This document shows positions 1 through 33,378 of a stretch of DNA of 33,378 nt, piece by piece. The notes below the pieces were generated by a model. It was given only the letters and a program-made list of their open reading frames with translations. It was not told where the DNA came from and made no database searches. Where the stretch lies: sequence record PQ657771.1; one strand, written 5' to 3'. The stretch's first letter is position 1; the number at the start of each line of letters is the position of its first letter. The position numbers were made by a program, and so were the translations under genes. The DNA is from Escherichia phage EC.P3.

Positions 1-347
1 ATATTAGCCGCAGTTTCTTCAAGCTCTCGCCAGCGGTCAACAAGGCGAGCGGTGAACTCTGGCGACAACTGGGCAACAACAACAATACTATCTCGCTTAC
101 CTTGTTCGCCTTCGAAGACGTAATGCTCGTACTGAACATTGAACCCTAAGTTATTGATTCTTTCGGAAACCTCAATTTGAGGAAGCCGGATAACACCATT
201 TTTAGCCAGCGTTTCGATGGTACGTTTCACATTGTCATGACGCTTACCCACCAACTCAGCGATTTCAATGCTTGTCATTTTGATGGCATTGCCATTTATT
301 AACTCATTCATCGTCTGGTATTGAAGGGTTTGGGATGGGCTAAGCAT
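1..347 (-). CDS. Rha-like regulatory protein, N-terminal part; 3' end runs off window start and is frame-continuous with 32967..33378
   Basis: ATG at 347..345 overlaps upstream stop (ATGCTTAG); translation MLSPSQTLQYQTMNELINGNAIKMTSIEIAELVGKRHDNVKRTIETL resembles Phage_pRha HTH domain; open to position 1. Confidence 0.6.
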   Translation of the reverse strand, partial: MLSPSQTLQYQTMNELINGNAIKMTSIEIAELVGKRHDNVKRTIETLAKNGVIRLPQIEVSERINNLGFNVQYEHYVFEGEQGKRDSIVVVAQLSPEFTARLVDRWRELEETAAN

Positions 348-4597: not shown

Positions 4598-5496
4598 GCA
4601 ATATCGTTGAATTCGTTAAACAGCAGGAGCAGTTATTCTGCGGAGCATTGACTGAACAGACGGTGACATGGGCTAAGGAAAGCCAGTTTGCAATTCAGTA
4701 TTTCCAGAAAAACGATTACCTGGCTAAAACGGCACTGGCAAATCCAACCAGCGCACAGAACGCCATCATCAATGTTGCGGCGATCGGCATCACCTTAAAC
4801 CCGGCCAGCAAACTTGCTTATCTAGTTCCGCGCGACGGCATGGTTTGCCTTGATATCAGCTATATGGGATTACTTCATCTTGCGCAATCGACAGGCTCAA
4901 TTAAGTGGGGGCAATGCAAACTGGTGTACTCAAACGACACCTATGAATCAAATGGCCTTGATTCAGCACCAACTCACAAATACAACGCATTTGGAGAGCG
5001 AGGCTCTATTGTTGGTGGTTATTGCACGGTAAAAACAGCAGATGGTGACTACCTGACTGAAGAAATGAGTCTGGCAGAAATTAAAGCAGTGGAAGCAACG
5101 AGCAAGGCAAAGAATGGACCGTGGAAAACATTCTGGGAAGAGATGGCGCGTAAAACAATAGTTAAACGCGCCAGCAAATACTGGCCTAAAGCCCAGCGAC
5201 TGGATAATGCCATTCACCTGCTTAACGAAGATGAAGGTATGCATCAGGAACCAGTTATGCCGCACAAATCAGAGGAAGATATCCGCGAAGATGAACGGAA
5301 ACTCCAGCAGGAAATAATGGATAAAGCACAACTTCTTTGCGATGAAATGGCTCAGGCAGAAAACATGGATGATTTGAAGCGATATTTTGCAGAAGCATAT
5401 CGCCTGACATCTGGAATGAAATTGCAGCAGAACGTACAAGCCATTTACATAGAATGCAAAGCGAAACTGGAGGTTGCCAGTGAGCAAACTGTATGA
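4594..5496 (+). CDS. recT: RecT-family single-strand annealing recombinase
   Basis: 300-aa translation with RecT-like core (NGPWKTFWEEMARKTIVKRASKYWPK). Confidence 0.85.
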   Translation: MSNIVEFVKQQEQLFCGALTEQTVTWAKESQFAIQYFQKNDYLAKTALANPTSAQNAIINVAAIGITLNPASKLAYLVPRDGMVCLDISYMGLLHLAQSTGSIKWGQCKLVYSNDTYESNGLDSAPTHKYNAFGERGSIVGGYCTVKTADGDYLTEEMSLAEIKAVEATSKAKNGPWKTFWEEMARKTIVKRASKYWPKAQRLDNAIHLLNEDEGMHQEPVMPHKSEEDIREDERKLQQEIMDKAQLLCDEMAQAENMDDLKRYFAEAYRLTSGMKLQQNVQAIYIECKAKLEVASEQTV

Positions 5497-10549: not shown

Positions 10550-12355
10550 TTATTTGAATAAATATGGAATTACAATTGCCACAGAAAATGTTACAGGGTT
10601 ACTGTGACCATTTGTTATGTGTACGCGAATTTTATTTGAAGATAACACCTGCAATTGAGTTGTGGCAATAGCAGAAGCTGCACTTCTTGATGTTATCTTA
10701 ACACTTGCATTTACCATGTCTAACTTTTCTGTTGTTGTTATATCTTGATATACATTGACACCTGCTGGAACATCTTGGAATGTTATAGTCTGATTGTAGA
10801 AACCATTAAACAATACTGTTTTCCCATGGGATACACCAACGCCTGATCTTATTGTTGGTAACAGTGTAGAGTTATCAGATGATATAAATGGAAACCCTAA
10901 GTCACCATCTGGTGAGGTGTTATTATTAAAAACATCGACATGGTCAAGATAGGTTGCCCTAACCATGCTTAATGGCCTCTGGTTACTATTCCATGAGTCT
11001 GCTGGAGTAACAATTTTAGGCTTGAACACAAGATCTCGTATACCCCAAGAATCAATTGCTATACATCCGTTTTCAAGCCCTTTAGCATATACAGTGTTAG
11101 TTTCGTCCATGCTGAAAGACGTTGGCGTACCGACCAGTATGCGGGCATAAGCATACTTTTTATAAAATGCATCACCTGGAGTTGCAGCACCGCCCCGCCC
11201 AGTAAGACCGTTATAAATAGATTGGTCATCCATATTTTCAAAGTAACAAAATTTAAACGCTATATTTTGCGGTCGAATAAGTGCAGCAGAATCAGTACCA
11301 ACAACGTAATTCGTCCACCGTTCAAACGCCATGGCAATAAAATTAATCGGACCATTACCAGCAGCGCCTGATATTTTGAAAAATGTATCAAAATCAACAG
11401 ATCTTCCGCCTATAAACTTAATGTTATATGCCCGCTGTATATCTGGGCCATTTTTAATTGCAAGCCAATCTGTATCTATAAATGTTACGTAAAAAGAATT
11501 GATACCTTGACATGGAACGTCAAACCCAAGCCAAGAAGTGCGGTTTGTTTTAATATTACCATTTAATGTCGATATTCCTTTATTCGTACCGATAGTACCG
11601 TTTCCATACTGTGGAATTCCCTTTACAATGACATCAGATAAAAAAACATCCGAATTTTCGCATTGAATAGCATAGTCCCCAGGAACGTCACAATATAATT
11701 GACTTGACTCCGCTCCTATAACCTTATTAGTCATATCGCCAGAATATCCACGAATCTCAAAGCGCCTACCTCCATATACGAGCTTTCGTTTAATTGTAAG
11801 CACTGAACCAGGTGGGATTGTAATAATCAAATGATTTGGATAGGCTGCCATCATTTCTTCAACAGCATCTGAGTCATCAGCCACACCATCGCATGTTGCG
11901 CCATAAGCCTGAGGTGTTACTGCGAACACAGCATTCTGAATTGTTCCTCCTTGTGTTAGGGGTATCATGTCAGCCCCCTTTCCATCTCCAGTCGATGTTA
12001 TTTCCTGGCGAAGCTGATCAGGATCATACTTCAGCACATTGGGAAAATTGAACTGCTGCGAACCATGCGCATCATAAACAGCCATAGAATGGCCTTGCAC
12101 GGTAACGAATTTGGCAATCTGTCCGTTATATACCGGATATCCGGCAGCGTTAATGATTATTGGTTGCGAAACAGGAATGTGAGAACCGTCTTCGTTCTCT
12201 ACATAAACCTGAATCTGGTTTTCAGGATTTACCGGGTCAGTGTCAATTTTACCGATATAAATTTTGCCATTAGCTACGGCTTTAAAAGAACGCGCCATAG
12301 TGAAGAGTTGCGAAGGCATACTCACTACAACATTGGCATTTATTGAATCTGTCAT
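10550..12355 (-). CDS. tailspike protein: P22-type head-binding domain, divergent receptor-binding domain
   Basis: Start moved to ATG 12355 (GGAG 8 nt upstream); [59 protein letters not shown] closely matches the P22 gp9 N-terminus as recalled; remainder diverges. Confidence 0.85.
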
Positions 12356-12413
12356 TTGATTTGCTCCAGATACAAGGAATGGCCGCAGCATGGCTACGGT
12401 GAATTTTGGGCAT

Positions 12414-12436
12414 AAAAAAACCCAGCCGAAGCTGGG
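12414..12436 (-). terminator. rho-independent terminator between ant and tailspike
   Basis: Minus-strand CCCAGC-TTCG-GCTGGG then TTTTTTT. Confidence 0.7.
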
Positions 12437-12455
12437 TCGTTGCGTTGGTTATCTG

Positions 12456-13334
12456 TCAGTAGTTATGTACTGAAGGAGGTAATTCTTTATTCTTAAGTCT
12501 CATCCATGCGGAAAGATTCGTTGGTCCGTCTGGCTCATTGATATCAACATCTCGTGTGTGATTGATTAAAACGTCTCTCGCCATATCGATAATACGGGAG
12601 AACTCATAACCGCAGTCATGACATCTGCCGGAATAGTTCGATTGAATTTGTTTTAGCGCCGGATACAGTTCGCGGAATAATGCCTGTGAGCGGTTGGCAT
12701 AATCCCATAACCATACAAGGCTGTTTGCTTCTTTTGCAGAAAGCTCGTTGGTTTTCTTCTCTTGTTTGCCGATGAATTCACCTTCAAGCACTACCCTGTG
12801 GATGTACTCTACGGCTTGCGGGATTTGTTCAATTGAAAGTTCATCAATGCTGTCAATACCAAAACGCTGATGAACCATATTGTATGCATCGTCATAGCGA
12901 AGTCCTTTCTTTCCTACCAGCATGTTTACTGCATCGCGTAGCGGTGTTCTTTCCTCAACAGTGGTTTTCTTTCCTTTTACATACTCGCCATGTTTGCGAA
13001 TTGAAGGCAGAACTTCTGCTGTTACCCACTTGCGGAATTTGTGCGGGACTGAACCTTTATTGACTGCATCGCGGCAGCGCAGAACCAATGTATACATACC
13101 TGATTCGCTCACAATGCTTAGATTCTGCTCACCACCAAGGGTGTAACTTAAAGTTACTCCCTTTTCATCGTCATCAAGTGCAGTAAGCGCCTTGCGTGAG
13201 TTAGTCAGGGTTAAAGCATCACAAACATCTTTTGCTACAAACCACGGCTCACCGCACTTGTTGATGACGCGGATTTCACTGTCGCCGAATTTGAAGATGG
13301 TGAAATCGTTTTGTGCCTTTGCTATACTTTTCAT
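12456..13334 (-). CDS. ant: antirepressor (BRO-N domain)
   Basis: [33 protein letters not shown] is a BRO-N signature; downstream of arc as in P22 immI; start set to ATG 13334 (AGGAAAT upstream), alternative TTG at 13400. Confidence 0.7.
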
Positions 13335-13396
13335 GTCAATATTTCCTAATCCGATTTGTTGATGCCGAAGCCCTGACTGTTCCCGCAGTTGGGGCT

Positions 13397-13666
13397 TCAA
13401 CGTTTTTCCACTTCATTTTGAATTTGCTTAAGTAGCATATTTGTCTCGTCAAGCCTCTTGTTAATACGGTCAAGGCTTTCTACTAAATCGTTATGTGCAT
13501 GTGATACTTCGTAATTTGAGACTGATTTCTTTTCCTCTATCGTCTTTGTCAATCGTTCCCCTGATTGATACATATTGATTAACGATGTAAAAATCACGAG
13601 CAAGCAAACTACAATGATTGCGCCAGACAAAAATTGTAAAGAACGATCAAGCAATGACACCTTCAT
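13397..13666 (-). CDS. small membrane-anchored coiled-coil protein
   Basis: One N-terminal hydrophobic helix ([19 protein letters not shown]) then heptad-like charged segment; coupled to the arc stop; lies between arc and ant. Confidence 0.5.
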
Positions 13667-13815
13667 ACCGCCACCCCCTCTCTCTTCAGGCTGTCTATCA
13701 GGCGCTTGATAACCTCTGAGTTAAACGACCTGCACTCTTCCTTTGCCTTGCTACCGATAGCATCCTTTAACGACTGCGGCATCCTTACCAAAATCTTACT
13801 TATTTCTTTCTCCAT
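13663..13815 (-). CDS. arc: Arc-like ribbon-helix-helix repressor
   Basis: Start at ATG 13815 with GGAGGG 5 nt upstream; MEKEISKILVRMPQSLKDAIGSKAKEECRSFNSEVIKRLIDSLKREG matches the Arc fold and RS.NSE motif. Confidence 0.75.
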   Translation of the reverse strand: MEKEISKILVRMPQSLKDAIGSKAKEECRSFNSEVIKRLIDSLKREGVAV

Positions 13816-13929
13816 GTTACCCTCCACACAAACAACTCTTTTCGAATACAAAAGATAGCAAAGTGAGTATATCTAGTCAAAATTTTTTTGCATACACTTT
13901 GATATCAAATTGAATACCAAAGGTGTGAT
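13816..13929. promoter_or_regulatory. divergent Pant/Pmnt-like promoter-operator region
   Basis: 114-bp AT-rich spacer between divergent arc-like and mnt-like genes; inverted repeats CAAAGTG (13859..13865) and CACTTTG (13895..13901). Confidence 0.5.
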
Positions 13930-14178
13930 ATGGCAAAGGGTGTGTCAATTTCTCCAACTACGGTAAGAATCCCTGAATCTTTACGCGAGGCTCTTGCTGT
14001 CAGAGCATCAAAAAATGGTCGCTCTGTTAACTCCGAGATCGTCATGATTTTGCAAGCCGCGATTGATGAAGATAGGTCGCCAAAGTCAGTTGAGTCATTT
14101 GCTCAGCAAGAAGCTGACAAATTCAAAGAGGCGCTGCTTGAGACGCTAAAGACCATGTATGGTAAGGATGAAAAATAA
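13930..14178 (+). CDS. mnt: Mnt-like ribbon-helix-helix repressor
   Basis: 82 aa; RIPESLREALAVRASKNGRSVNSEIVMILQAAI and C-terminal KFKEALLETLKTMYGK parallel P22 Mnt, including the tetramerisation tail. Confidence 0.8.
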   Translation: MAKGVSISPTTVRIPESLREALAVRASKNGRSVNSEIVMILQAAIDEDRSPKSVESFAQQEADKFKEALLETLKTMYGKDEK

Positions 14179-14714
14179 TGCTGCACACAATTCATTTCTT
14201 ATGCCCTGTTAACACTGCCACTGTTGGGCAACTTCAGAACCACTGTCTCACCGCATTATCTCAAGGCGCAACTGAATTAAATATCCATATATCAAGTCAG
14301 GGAGGGGAAACTGCTGCTGGCTTTACTGCGTATAACTTTCTTAAGTCACTCCCTGTTACCGTTAGAACTCACAACATAAGCAATGTTGAATCCATAGCTA
14401 ATATCGTTTTCCTGGCTGGCTCAGAACGTTTCGCAAACCCATTATCAAGATTCCTGTTACATCCTCTATTATGGGGCTTTGCCACCCCAGCCGCCGACCA
14501 TGCCAGATTGAGAGAGTACGGGAAATGCCTCGATAACGATCTTGATCGCTTCGTTGAGACGTTCAATATCGACATCGGAACCCATATTAGGTGGGCATCC
14601 CTGATAGCAGACTCGACCATTTTGGATGCTAACAAGGCTCTTGAGCATGGCATAATTAATTCCATAAAAACTGCAAGGCTGGTATCCAATCAGGCAAACT
14701 GGTGGGTTGTTTGA
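14178..14714 (+). CDS. ClpP-like serine peptidase (S14-like fold)
   Basis: Aligns by eye to ClpP: NIHISSQGG vs INSPGG, ESIANIVFLAG vs AASMGAFLLTAG (Ser retained), LLHPLLWG vs MIHQPLGG (His retained), Asp present downstream; start overlaps mnt stop (TAATG). Confidence 0.7.
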   Translation: MLHTIHFLCPVNTATVGQLQNHCLTALSQGATELNIHISSQGGETAAGFTAYNFLKSLPVTVRTHNISNVESIANIVFLAGSERFANPLSRFLLHPLLWGFATPAADHARLREYGKCLDNDLDRFVETFNIDIGTHIRWASLIADSTILDANKALEHGIINSIKTARLVSNQANWWVV

Positions 14715-14766: not shown

Positions 14767-15189
14767 TTAGTGCTTGTATAGCTTGAACTCCCTGTCGAGC
14801 CATAAGACATAAAAAGTGGCTCCTATCTTATAACCAACCATAGGTGCCTTAGAGCAAAATCTGAACGCAATGAAATCCACATCTTGAGTAACATGCTTAG
14901 GAATCGGAGCCTTTATCGCGTTTCTGGCAATTTTTTCCGTCCCAAGCCCGTGTTTATCAGATTTTCGTATCTCATCCCATGACATCTGACTTAACCTGAA
15001 CAGCCTATCTGCAAATGCTGCCTTTTCATGCTTTTGGCAGCAATCTAGGCAATACCCCTTTTGTAGGTATCTAAGAGAAAATACAGGCGGACTTTTGTCT
15101 ACATCATGAGATTCGTGATGGATAGAGAGGCCAACAGTAGCAGAGCTCTCTTTATCCCTCTGTTTTATTCTTCCCTTAACTCTAGACAT
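14767..15189 (-). CDS. unrecognised 140-aa protein, candidate toxin/effector partner of the Panacea protein
   Basis: 5 nt downstream of the DUF4065 gene on the same strand; no transmembrane segment; no family recognised. Confidence 0.5.
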   Translation of the reverse strand: MSRVKGRIKQRDKESSATVGLSIHHESHDVDKSPPVFSLRYLQKGYCLDCCQKHEKAAFADRLFRLSQMSWDEIRKSDKHGLGTEKIARNAIKAPIPKHVTQDVDFIAFRFCSKAPMVGYKIGATFYVLWLDREFKLYKH

Positions 15190-15194
15190 ACACG

Positions 15195-15644
15195 TCAGTT
15201 AATTAACGTTTTGAAAAAACCTTTCATAGAATCAAGTGTGATTTCTTGGCTAACCGCACCCTCAATGTAAGCATCTTTCCATGGCTGCTCTTCGTGAGTC
15301 ATATTGCGCAGTTTCCAGGCAGAAAACTGACCATAAACTTTATACACCTCATCCAGCAATTCAATTTCATCTTCACTGAATTTTTTAGCGTCAAAGTTTT
15401 CTGGCGCAGGTAAAGCTCCGTTACCACAGTCCCTATATTTACGATACAATTCAGGAACTACTGGCCCATGCATCCAGGCTTCAATTTTCTCATTAAATAG
15501 CGGTTTACCCAGAAGAACCAGAGAAAACCCTTGGGCATAATACGTCAACTTCTGAATTTTTAGGTTAGAGATAATGTCGCCACTTTCTTCATCGCAATGC
15601 GCCAAGAAGTAGTCGGCGACATCAAAACAAGTGAGCATAAACAT
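15195..15644 (-). CDS. Panacea-domain (DUF4065, GepA/SocA-like) protein, candidate antitoxin
   Basis: CFDVADYFLAHCDEESGDIISNLKIQKLTYYAQGFSLVLLGKPLFNEKIEAWMHGPVVPELY matches the DUF4065 core pattern. Confidence 0.7.
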   Translation of the reverse strand: MFMLTCFDVADYFLAHCDEESGDIISNLKIQKLTYYAQGFSLVLLGKPLFNEKIEAWMHGPVVPELYRKYRDCGNGALPAPENFDAKKFSEDEIELLDEVYKVYGQFSAWKLRNMTHEEQPWKDAYIEGAVSQEITLDSMKGFFKTLIN

Positions 15645-31620: not shown

Positions 31621-32007
31621 TCATCGAAGGCATTGCGTCCTGATGTACTCCTGCAGGTAGTTAACCTGCGCGGTTATCCTGTCGATTCCACTTCGGAGAC
31701 GGTAATAATTGAGTTCAGCATCTGCTGTAAGTCTTGGGCTTTCTCCATCGCCCATGCTGCTGGCTCCGGTCGTTGACTTTGCACAGATGGCGGCGACTTG
31801 CAGGCGCTTACGACCAGCAGAAACATCAGCACGGAGACTTTCGATAGTCGCGTTAGCATCAGCAAGCTCCTTTGTGTATCTGGCGTCAAGTTCTGCTACA
31901 TCACGTTGACGCTTCTGCATGTCAGCGATTGTGGATGTGGCCTTATCGCGCTGCTCTTTATAGGCGATTGTGGCGACCGGTGCTGATCTCCGGTTTGCTG
32001 CAACTGC
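31621..32007 (-). pseudogene. Rz: Rz (i-spanin) remnant lacking in-frame N-terminal membrane anchor
   Basis: Frame reads AVAANRRSAPVATIAYKEQRDK...MQKRQRDVAELDARYTKELADA...QCLR, homologous to the lambda Rz periplasmic domain; in-frame TAG at 32008..32010 and no start before Met 31920; a Rz-anchor-like stretch SALIVVV sits in another frame. Confidence 0.5.
31674..31859 (-). CDS. Rz1: Rz1-like o-spanin lipoprotein embedded in Rz frame +1
   Basis: MLTRLSKVSVLMFLLVVSAC with lipobox LVVSAC then Pro-rich segment; embedded as in lambda. Confidence 0.6.
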   Translation of the reverse strand: MLTRLSKVSVLMFLLVVSACKSPPSVQSQRPEPAAWAMEKAQDLQQMLNSIITVSEVESTG

Positions 32008-32063
32008 CTACAGCGGGCTACGTGGCCACACCGAATCCAGCGAAAGATTCTTGCCCTTACACA

Positions 32064-32321
32064 TCAGCCTGTGCATTCACCACAACGATAAGAGCACTGC
32101 GCGGCACCTTTCACCAATTCCGCGAGGTCTGCGGGTCGTCTTCCCCTCTTGCCCTGTTTGACTATCAGGACGCCGTTAACTATTGCGTGACGCTCGCCTT
32201 TGCTGTCTCTGTTGTACTTGAGCACTGTTCCTCTTGCACAGGAAAGCCTCCTCGCCACTTCGGTCTGATTGCCTCGTGTCTGGATAAGAAGTTCTGGTAT
32301 CGTTTGAATTGTGGCGTTCAT
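32064..32321 (-). CDS. ninH: NinH-like protein with about 25-aa non-homologous C-terminal extension
   Basis: First 57 aa (TIPELLIQTRGNQTEVARRLSCARGTVLKYNRDSKGERHAIVNGVLIV) resemble lambda NinH; extension runs toward the Rz remnant. Confidence 0.6.
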   Translation of the reverse strand: MNATIQTIPELLIQTRGNQTEVARRLSCARGTVLKYNRDSKGERHAIVNGVLIVKQGKRGRRPADLAELVKGAAQCSYRCGECTG

Positions 32322-32680
32322 ACGTTCTCCAGTTCGGTGATTTTTATTCCAAGCCTTCCGCCTGGTACTTTCACACCACGAATTACGCGAATGTCATCGA
32401 ATTGCTCGTCGTCTTCCGCAAATCCGGCGTGGATAAGGGAGTCGAGTAAACCTTTCAGGATGTTGTCGAGGTCGCGGCGGCGGGAGTCTGGAACGTCTGC
32501 GATGACTTTGATACGGACTCGTGATTTGGTGAAAATGTCTAACTTGAGTTGGCGAATGATTTGCTGAACGTCTTTTCGGTATTTCTGGCCTTTATCGCTG
32601 ATGTAGTATTGGCTTCCCCGTCTTCGCCAGTAGGTATTCACCGACGGCGGGTAAGGAAGCACAAACTGATATTCGTTCAT
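32318..32680 (-). CDS. rusA: RusA-family Holliday junction resolvase
   Basis: 120 aa, start with PYPPSVNTYW, acidic catalytic region; coupled to flanking nin genes. Confidence 0.85.
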   Translation of the reverse strand: MNEYQFVLPYPPSVNTYWRRRGSQYYISDKGQKYRKDVQQIIRQLKLDIFTKSRVRIKVIADVPDSRRRDLDNILKGLLDSLIHAGFAEDDEQFDDIRVIRGVKVPGGRLGIKITELENV

Positions 32681-32967
32681 GGCTTAATCTTCCCCTCCTT
32701 CAGCAGTATCGCCTGCGTCCTGATCACGCCTTCGAGGTGGTAAAGTCTGGCGTCTTTGTTGTCGAGATTATGGGTGCGTCGGTCGATTTCATCGTGACAC
32801 GCGCTACAAGCCCATGCGCCGATCAGGTCGTCAGGCTTCATTCCCGTTCCGCAAATTCCAGCCATCCGGTAATGTGCCAGAACTGTAGTTTCAGGATTGC
32901 CATTGCATACGCCGTAAATACGTACCTGACATTCTCTGCCGCGTGCTTCTTTGCGTAGATTGGCCAT
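32677..32967 (-). CDS. DUF1364 (YbcO-like) nin-region protein
   Basis: RGRECQVRIYGVCNGNPETTVLAHYRM...GAWACSACHDEIDRRTH matches the YbcO pattern as recalled; directly upstream of rusA as in DLP12. Confidence 0.7.
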   Translation of the reverse strand: MANLRKEARGRECQVRIYGVCNGNPETTVLAHYRMAGICGTGMKPDDLIGAWACSACHDEIDRRTHNLDNKDARLYHLEGVIRTQAILLKEGKIKP

Positions 32968-33378
32968 TAAGCAGCCTCCCCTGTTACTTTCAGCATTCCG
33001 TTATCGAGCAGCTTTCTGGTCAGCCACTGTTGGCCACGCCCGGTGATTTTTGTGGTGAACGATATCTGTATTCCGTGATTTGTATTGACCGCTGTTTCTT
33101 TCACTGTGAAATAGCCGCGATCCATATATTCCTGCATTGGCACATTGCGCCGGGAACCTGAAGCAATAAGGATTTTGTGATCGCGCATCCACGCAAACAG
33201 TTTGTTTTGACCAATTCCAACAACCTTTGCAAAGTTTCCAATCAAAATTCCGCTGGCCTCGCCAACGCGATCGGCAAACTCAACTTTAGGTGCGGCAATT
33301 GCGAGCTGGTTTTCCAGTTGCATTTTCTGCTCAGCAAGATCAGCAGCAAGGCGCAACGCTTCTGGTAGCGTTTTGGGG
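32967..33378 (-). CDS. KilAC-type antirepressor C-terminal part; 5' end runs off window end and is frame-continuous with 1..347
   Basis: PKTLPEALRLAADLAEQKMQLENQLAIAAPKVEFADRV linker then KilAC-like core; ORF open to position 33378. Confidence 0.65.
   Translation of the reverse strand, partial: PKTLPEALRLAADLAEQKMQLENQLAIAAPKVEFADRVGEASGILIGNFAKVVGIGQNKLFAWMRDHKILIASGSRRNVPMQEYMDRGYFTVKETAVNTNHGIQISFTTKITGRGQQWLTRKLLDNGMLKVTGEAA

Follow-up and report, generated by a model that had tools for sequence, protein, structure and literature searches.

A predicted membrane-protein gene is one of several interchangeable small cargoes between arc and the sar hairpin in a P22-type immI operon

We analyzed a 33,378-nucleotide stretch of DNA from Escherichia phage EC.P3 (record PQ657771.1), called the window below, and found that an 89-amino-acid open reading frame (ORF89) lies between arc and ant in a slot of the immI (Pant) operon that P22-like phages fill with one or another of several exchangeable small genes, referred to here as cargo. 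The edges of this slot are fixed, the left one by the arc stop codon and the right one by the terminator hairpin of sar. We are highly confident of the gene, the slot and the protein architecture; ORF89 is a genuine gene rather than a chance ORF. The best explanation overall, which we put forward tentatively, is that this slot cargo gene may encode a dispensable accessory factor acting at the membrane.

Organization of the immI operon around ORF89

The features of the locus, together with the Rz remnant in the lysis region, are given by window position.

12419..12438, minus strand: intrinsic terminator 3' of ant, the sole minus-strand terminator found in 12300..14300
12456..13334, minus strand: ant, third cistron, a 292-aa antirepressor (P22_AR_C 2.6e-28; Bro-N 5e-20; phrog_245 Ant 3.6e-110)
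13300..13328, plus strand: Psar-like promoter inside the 5' end of ant (promoter scan)
13336..13402, plus strand: sar antisense RNA (RF00262 in Rfam; 64 bits, gathering score 43)
13367..13398, plus strand: sar terminator hairpin, right edge of the cargo slot, read from the sequence; a U-tract follows
13397..13666, minus strand: ORF89, 89-aa cargo gene and middle cistron of arc-X-ant (RefSeq WP_001555392.1; phrog_27312)
13663..13666, minus strand: ATGA overlap of the ORF89 start with the arc stop, left edge of the cargo slot
13663..13815, minus strand: arc, first cistron, a 50-aa ribbon-helix-helix repressor (Pfam Arc 1.9e-11)
13674..13680, minus strand: Shine-Dalgarno sequence GAGGGGG of ORF89, read from the sequence, within the conserved last arc codons (KREG)
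13852..13880, minus strand: Pant-like sigma-70 promoter upstream of arc, TTGACT-17-TATCTT with TG, a consensus match only
13930..14178, plus strand: mnt, divergent maintenance repressor (Arc/RHH domain)
31621..31920: Rz remnant, the C-terminal 99 residues

The locus carries all features of a P22-type immI Pant operon, with Arc encoded first, Ant last, sar antisense to the ant leader and mnt divergent. An earlier note on this DNA had described an 89-residue ORF interposed between arc and ant and coupled to the arc stop. Both statements hold: the ORF is present at 13397..13666 on the minus strand, and its ATG (13666..13664) overlaps the arc TGA as ATGA. ORF89 is translationally coupled to arc, and its Shine-Dalgarno sequence is found 8-14 nt upstream of the start. 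A promoter scan revealed no promoter of its own upstream of the start codon. A terminator scan of 12300..14300 detected no terminator on the coding strand between arc and ant; the minus strand of this interval contains the single terminator listed above, and arc, ORF89 and ant thus form one transcription unit. The same note stated that in P22 arc is followed directly by ant, which agrees with the annotation of Kapi1 and epsilon34, two sequenced, named phages in which the slot is empty.

In P22, Pant is on immediately at infection, Arc autoregulates, Mnt represses in lysogens and sar blocks ant translation (PMC2629481). By analogy with this immI role, mnt is expected to silence the EC.P3 operon in a lysogen (PMC2629481). 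Extrapolating from P22, Pant would fire just after DNA entry and briefly drive synthesis of both Arc and ORF89; Arc would then close Pant, and Mnt would silence the operon in the lysogen, where ORF89 would be absent. Late-operon read-through toward the tailspike gene may add to ORF89 expression. Since sar pairs with the leader located 3' of ORF89, expression of ORF89 should track that of arc and not that of ant.

The arc-to-sar slot and its cargo genes

The junctions of the slot recur from locus to locus. All 16 independent ORF89-family loci examined have the ATGA junction and, downstream of the gene, the sar hairpin, and other cargo types examined start with ATGA or GTGA. In the loci examined, cargo genes end in a Lys-rich tail (KQ, KR or KI) followed by TGAAGCCCC; the cargo TGA forms the foot of the sar hairpin stem, and the Lys-rich last codons are the U-tract on the opposite strand. 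In ORF89, the TGA is likewise the foot of the hairpin, and the sar U-tract is encoded opposite the last codons, GAA AAA CGT; the stop and last codon together generate a 6-nt overlap with sar. A 62-nt leader separates ORF89 from ant. On the left side, an Arc C-terminal tail of the form DSLKREG-x-x-x is common to cargo-bearing phages, even when their Arc N-termini differ.

The gene between these edges varies. Besides ORF89, the slot may hold a 60-aa ClpX-type C4 zinc finger (locus L003; Pfam 43 bits against a threshold of 27), a 57-aa protein of phrog_17642 (L004 and L007) or a 73-aa protein of phrog_11805 (L006 and orf73 of Salmonella phage Emek). The zinc finger, Emek orf73 and the 57-aa protein have the same boundaries, size class (57-89 aa) and inferred expression as ORF89, but their sequences are unrelated to it, and ORF89 is the sole cargo type with a transmembrane (TM) segment among the matches listed and the loci examined. 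We took a census of 50 IMG/VR loci with a full sar hairpin among the matches listed, chance 15-mer matches having been filtered out. A cargo gene is present in 34 of these 50: among the matches listed, 19 encode a Cys-rich CxxC...CxxC protein, 5 the 73-aa protein, 6 the 57-aa protein (2 of them truncated), 3 ORF89 and 1 an 80-aa protein. Of the other 16 among the matches listed, 14 have an Arc-family ORF that ends at the hairpin (7+5+1+1) and two have an unassignable short fragment, in one case a C-terminal remnant of ORF89. The 5' end of ant is common to many unrelated lambdoid prophages, which makes a flank-only chimeric query unfit for measuring slot occupancy in E. coli.

Published work treats the interval between genes 16 and 9 as a hypervariable, rapidly changing 'ant moron', of which sixteen genomes contained ten types (PMC2629481). 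ORF89 co-occurs with two Arc types, at least four Ant leader or N-terminal types and several mnt-side modules, and thus has no constant protein partner. The other slot cargo is soluble, so the slot itself is uninformative about a role at the membrane.

The ORF89 protein and its family

Three segments can be distinguished in the protein.

13571..13639, minus strand: single TM helix, codons 10-32 (Kyte-Doolittle; AlphaFold2 helix), with LSGAIIV and FT invariant in the family
13529..13570, minus strand: juxtamembrane motif Y-x-SGERLT-x-TIE-x-K, codons 33-46, with Y33, S35-T40 and T42-E44 invariant; the best-conserved soluble segment
13400..13516, minus strand: coiled coil of 5.5 heptads, codons 51-89, assigned from the heptad pattern; fast-evolving

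This division agrees with the single-pass protein with a coiled coil described from the letters alone, and is backed by hydropathy, heptads and an AlphaFold2 model. The top 19-residue Kyte-Doolittle window spans residues 12-30 (mean 2.79) and is preceded by an N-tail of ~9 residues; as the hydrophobic run of ~23 residues comes without a signal-peptidase-like site, it is a membrane anchor. The soluble part of 57-59 residues contains no Cys, no Pro and a single Gly. Its heptads place N51, H58, L65, L72, L79 and V86 at position a, and V54, L61, I68, T75 and I82 at position d. A heptad-like pattern extends through the TM and juxtamembrane segments (a = G15, L22, L29, G36, I43; d = I18, I25, M32, L39). 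Judging from the heptad pattern, the protein is most likely a parallel homo-oligomer. Lys and Arg residues number 2-3 in the N-terminal flank of the TM helix versus 2 in the C-terminal flank, and an N-in/C-out topology is weakly favored on sequence grounds. AlphaFold2 predicts one continuous helix from residue 3 to 88 with a pLDDT of 90. A BFVD fold search with this model returned zero matches, as expected for a single helix.

The protein is already catalogued. The phrog_27312 profile matches ORF89 over 89 of 89 positions (6.5e-61), and phrog_27312/WP_001555392.1 is the same protein with no differences, annotated as hypothetical in E. coli prophages at the same arc-X-ant position. At least 1000 contigs of E. 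coli and Salmonella carry the identical sequence, nearly always under the name 'hypothetical'. The names 'YoxC' or 'MtrG' carried by some copies are automatic labels prompted by the TM-plus-helix architecture. Of 5426 complete E. coli genomes, 14 carry ORF89, single-copy and chromosomal every time; near-identical copies are found on 13 IMG/VR contigs, and one phage record, Salmonella phage S.Kent 1-2-1, contains it.

A word-indexed search of 5.8 billion proteins returned only ORF89 copies of at least 84% identity and fragments. Exhaustive phmmer over 1.84 billion cluster representatives identified a single true distant relative, P0009, an 83-aa protein with 48% identity to ORF89 that is also matched by phrog_27312 (4.8e-19). 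P0009 occupies the slot between arc and ant in a divergent P22-like element whose DNA is not closely matched by any phage record, and its gene is bounded by the same ATGA junction and sar hairpin as ORF89. Scanning species-representative genomes with a sequence pattern gave zero relatives, and one IMG/VR match (L030) was rejected as spurious, lying inside a helicase. No homologue with an assigned function was found in Pfam, NCBIfam, PADLOC, PDB sequences or BFVD folds, and a literature search for the accession returned zero mentions in papers. Among the top Pfam models is DUF948/YoxC (PF06103), with ORF89 residues 16-84 aligned to model positions 11-79 and P0009 residues 16-75 to positions 11-70; the scores of 15.9 and 13.8 bits, respectively, are far below the 37.2 gathering threshold, and the likeness is one of architecture only. 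The look-alikes DUF948, DUF1664, the NavMs C-terminus and a bacteriocin-immunity PHROG are all weak, and we judged them to reflect composition and architecture.

Two in-frame indels, of 7 codons and 1 codon, separate ORF89 from P0009, and P0009 has the same heptad pattern, the 7-residue deletion keeping the register. For this pair, codons 1-50 give a dN/dS of 0.33 and the later codons one of ~1.1; comparison of ORF89 with a 91%-identical copy gives 0.35. As substitutions are few, these values are indicative. The invariant residues cluster in LSGAIIV, FT and Y-x-SGERLT-x-TIE, so the conserved core of the protein is the TM helix plus the first 15 residues outside the membrane, with the zipper drifting. 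At 35.9%, the GC content of ORF89 is below the 44-48% of the genes on either side, as is typical of acquired genes. Frameshifted 60-aa variants occur, as do other truncated or fused fragments. The C-terminal dN/dS of ~1.1, the rarity of the gene and the occasional frameshifts together indicate that selection may be weak.

Possible roles of ORF89

The earlier note likened ORF89 to i-spanins and FtsL-like proteins and pointed to a canonical Rz that looked defective. Rz is defective indeed, its C-terminal 99 residues alone being left at 31621..31920, and the TM/coiled-coil architecture shared with i-spanins and FtsL was confirmed; a functional link gained no support from the partner, locus and profile tests. 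As a backup or alternative i-spanin, ORF89 would replace the truncated Rz and link the inner and outer membranes at lysis, which we consider extremely improbable. Two-component i-spanins are class II (N-in, C-out) inner-membrane proteins whose cognate o-spanin gene is embedded, overlapping or adjacent (PMC6139136). The periplasmic domain of lambda-type Rz has two helices and a linker, its C-terminal end contacting the o-spanin, and coiled-coil content varies widely among i-spanins (PMC6139136). ORF89 resembles lambda/P22 Rz (PF03245, phrog_214) in having an N-terminal TM helix followed by a coiled coil, but it is about half as long and lacks the linker, CC2, periplasmic Cys, an Rz1-type partner and a position in the lysis cassette. 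Its short, Cys-free soluble part is a single unbroken helix without the CC1-linker-CC2 arrangement of Rz. It is located in the immI operon, ~18 kb from the Rz remnant. A lipobox scan covering all start codons in all coding-strand frames of 13250..13760 yielded 0 candidate o-spanin lipoproteins and, as a positive control, recovered Rz1 at 31859 (VSAC).

We compared ORF89 with the Rz/i-spanin and divisome families, as had been proposed, and the Pfam models were blank: PF03245 (Phage_lysis) gave no match in a Pfam scan at E <= 1, and neither did PF04977 (DivIC) or PF04999 (FtsL) at E <= 1 for ORF89 and E <= 0.1 for P0009. A marginal similarity to Rz was nevertheless detected. With a single Rz, hhalign aligned ORF89 residues 18-87 with Rz residues 11-80, collinear over the TM domain (TMD) and CC1, at 53% (P = 1.3e-4, score 29.3), a score reached by 0 of 120 segment-shuffled and 0 of 100 heptad-block-permuted Rz controls; phrog_214 (Rz-like) was hit with E = 0.048 by ORF89 and 0.21 by the family member P0003. 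However, 6 of 100 TM-shuffled Rz controls reached the real score, the probability dropped to 23% with a richer, 13-sequence Rz profile, and P0009 had no phrog_214 match. Homology to Rz was rejected on these three grounds, and from the profiles we read the likeness as one of architecture. A large Rz homologue search added little diversity, the matches listed all being at least 88% identical.

Comparison of two regions with phage E212 (MZ043897) revealed 100% identity in every aligned segment, E212 departing from the window at two places, immI and lysis. Relative to E212, the window lacks 1113 bp comprising the Rz N-terminus, endolysin and part or all of the holin, as well as 921 bp that take in Q plus a portion of ninH; the two deletions, about 2 kb together, flank a retained 171-bp island. 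Since the deletions also took holin, endolysin and Q, a substitute i-spanin would have no partners and could not make good the loss. Conversely, a prophage of strain APEC O2-211 carries ORF89 together with an intact holin, lysin, 155-aa Rz and Q, its lysis cassette being complete and separate from ORF89. In strain WL164, what is left of the prophage stops short of the lysis region. E212 in turn lacks the segment corresponding to window positions 12628..14157, which includes most of ant, sar, ORF89, arc and nearly all of mnt; in its stead stand 313 bp left over from an IS21-family istB gene. According to its record, E212 was isolated from sewage on E. coli K88. As it was isolated as a phage without the immI block, this block, including ORF89, is probably dispensable for lytic growth.

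A role in cell division was considered by analogy with small phage membrane proteins that block division via FtsL/DivIC, such as SPO1 gp56 (bioRxiv 10.1101/2020.02.06.938217; PMC11237401). ORF89 would here be an FtsB/FtsL-like mimic that poisons FtsQLB and blocks division early in infection; we regard this as improbable. ORF89 shares with FtsB, FtsL, DivIC and SPO1 gp56 a small size, a bitopic topology and a membrane-proximal zipper, here with a short N-tail and an Asn at position a; early expression, as described for gp56 and predicted for ORF89, would suit host takeover. A bitopic protein with a membrane-proximal leucine zipper is, however, an architecture common to many unrelated proteins. 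In addition to the blank DivIC and FtsL models, hhalign scores against E. coli FtsB (10.0) and FtsL (8.9) are at background, compared with 29.3 for Rz, and ORF89 lacks sequence or profile similarity to FtsB/FtsL/DivIC as well as the C-terminal FtsQ-binding region. Conservation peaks in the TM and juxtamembrane motif and not in the zipper, and the APEC O2-211 prophage already encodes Kil. We do not think that ORF89 is a lysis or divisome component, and it is very likely an accessory protein rather than a spanin.

It is unlikely, in our estimate, that ORF89 is a decaying or near-neutral hitch-hiker without current function, kept between two conserved recombination boundaries. Its rarity, the frameshifted, truncated and fused forms, the drifting C-terminal half and the loss of the entire block from E212 are consistent with such a history, but the low dN/dS of the N-terminal 50 codons, the conservation of frame, heptad register and slot in P0009 at 48% identity, and the spread of the exact sequence over E. 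coli and Salmonella contigs argue against it. Quite improbable, too, is a modulator of immI itself, a tethered coiled coil that would bind Arc or Ant or alter sar pairing and thereby tune the antirepressor. Coupling to arc and the 6-nt overlap with sar fit a modulator, as does the fact that ORF89 always travels with arc and the sar hairpin; yet its Arc and Ant neighbors vary, unrelated cargo occupies the same place, and arc-ant pairs without cargo exist in Kapi1 and epsilon34.

The favored explanation is a slot cargo gene for a dispensable accessory factor. In this proposal, the conserved TM helix and juxtamembrane segment would act, just after infection, at the cytoplasmic membrane of the host, where ORF89 could exclude competing phage DNA or neutralize a membrane-embedded host or prophage function. 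Such a specific, membrane-directed competitive role is possible but doubtful. The known exclusion proteins of prophages are as a rule produced in the lysogen, where a Mnt-repressed operon should be silent. P22 SieA, a non-essential membrane protein, is encoded between genes 16 and 9 (PMC8022706, PMC2629481), and ORF89 is also a membrane protein in the gene 16-9 region of a P22-like phage. Neither SieA nor any known exclusion family was among the PHROG, Pfam or PADLOC matches of ORF89. SieA is larger, polytopic and expressed from the prophage, whereas ORF89 belongs to the Pant operon, which by inference from P22 would be Mnt-repressed. The slot may also resemble acr/aca loci, with a strong promoter that would fire at entry and be shut by its own small repressor, Arc, next to interchangeable small effector genes. 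We assign a low probability to the analogy that the slot is an anti-CRISPR/aca-like counter-defence locus and ORF89 a membrane-anchored counter-defence or anti-exclusion effector whose TM and juxtamembrane motif would disable an effector of the host or a resident prophage embedded in the membrane. In a narrower variant of this reading, ORF89 may be a decoy of the Rz TMD and CC1 that regulates the spanin.

ORF89 was already on record as a hypothetical protein, and its region has been known to be hypervariable since 2008, so a specialist would not be surprised by our findings. Added here are the definition of the insertion site to the nucleotide and the constraint that the sar U-tract places on cargo C-termini, a tidy but incremental advance; as it stands, the finding is of little import and adds one more small gene to the ant moron. 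The slot edges provide a simple rule, an ORF ending at TGAAGCCCC...GGGCTTC, for collecting small genes whose probable expression, to judge from P22 immI, falls in the immediate-early burst of Pant. ORF89 is the sole membrane protein in this cargo catalogue, and its short conserved TM/juxtamembrane motif is directly testable. Should the cargo genes prove to act in host takeover or counter-defence, further factors of this kind could conveniently be sought in the slot.

The arc-ant slot and the fate of ORF89

Every gene ending at the sar terminator hairpin, be it arc or one of the interchangeable small genes (cargo) found between the arc stop codon and this hairpin, encodes a protein that ends in K-x or K-x-x, with TGA as the stop codon (window 13397..13412, and the equivalent positions in arc/sar loci L003-L010 from other phages and prophages). 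The cause lies in the U-tract of the sar terminator, to which the codons involved are complementary; sar, an antisense RNA, thereby constrains the C terminus of the protein that ends at its hairpin. In the IMG/VR loci L031-L150, the 73-aa (Emek orf73; E = 0.025) and 80-aa (E = 1.7e-4) cargo proteins both give weak, sub-threshold matches to Pfam FlbD, and the two may be distantly related.

Several E. coli contigs carry damaged versions of ORF89, the 89-aa membrane-anchored coiled-coil gene. Three are frameshifted forms of 60 aa (P0005, P0007 and P0008), whose reading frame shifts within the GAAGAAAAGAAA run, beyond roughly residue 46; others are truncated or fused (P0004, P0006 and P0010). From these sequences the gene is evidently being lost from some lineages. 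Just within its 5' end we located a promoter-like site:

13633..13660, minus strand, GTGTCA-16-TACAAT (consensus match only)

If active, this candidate promoter could drive only a Met32-start product, a soluble coiled coil, or extra transcription into ant.

Genome completeness and deletions relative to phage E212

We compared the window with phage E212 (MZ043897.1). Positions 32136..33378 followed by 1..316 are contiguous in E212 (segment L015, 3875-5117 then 5118-5433, 100% identity), and thus the 33,378 bases look like the whole of a P22-like (Lederbergvirus) genome in circularly permuted form rather than a prophage with host flanks. In the lysis region, 1113 bp of E212 comprising the Rz N terminus, the endolysin and part or all of the holin are absent from the window, as are 921 bp comprising the Q antiterminator and part of ninH. 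A 171-bp island (31966..32136) remains between the two deletions, and microhomology at the junctions amounts to only 1-3 nt. Because the late activator, holin and endolysin are all missing, the genome as written is either defective or mis-assembled.

In E212, a 313-bp fragment (segment L014, 3229..3541) stands where the window has 12628..14157, most of immI. We take this fragment to encode the C terminus of an IS21-family IstB-like protein, and an IS-mediated deletion seems to have taken out mnt, arc, ORF89, sar and most of ant.

Genes on the mnt side

Two features lie on the mnt side:

14178..14714, plus strand, ClpP-like serine protease gene, 178 aa (Pfam CLP_protease, 4.3e-12)
14767..15644, minus strand, two-gene module, a SocA-like gene then a gene for a 140-aa protein

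The first module protein (149 aa) is Panacea/SocA-family antitoxin-like (NCBIfam SocA, 6.5e-17, below cut-off), and the second shows weak similarity to the MAG6450 family and to PADLOC NsnC (1.8e-7). The pair probably forms a module of the toxin-antitoxin or defence type within the 'ant moron'; in related prophages YafO toxin or other genes occupy the equivalent position.

The mnt stop codon shares its final base with the start of the ClpP-like gene, and in the lysogen the protease should therefore be made together with Mnt. Among the matches listed, Cys-rich proteins similar to the zinc finger of the ClpX N-domain are the commonest arc-ant cargo in related phages, and one family of them exceeds the Pfam threshold. 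The slot holding this cargo and the ClpP-like gene lie on opposite sides of Pant/Pmnt, and a Clp-related theme flanking these promoters on both sides may be of interest.
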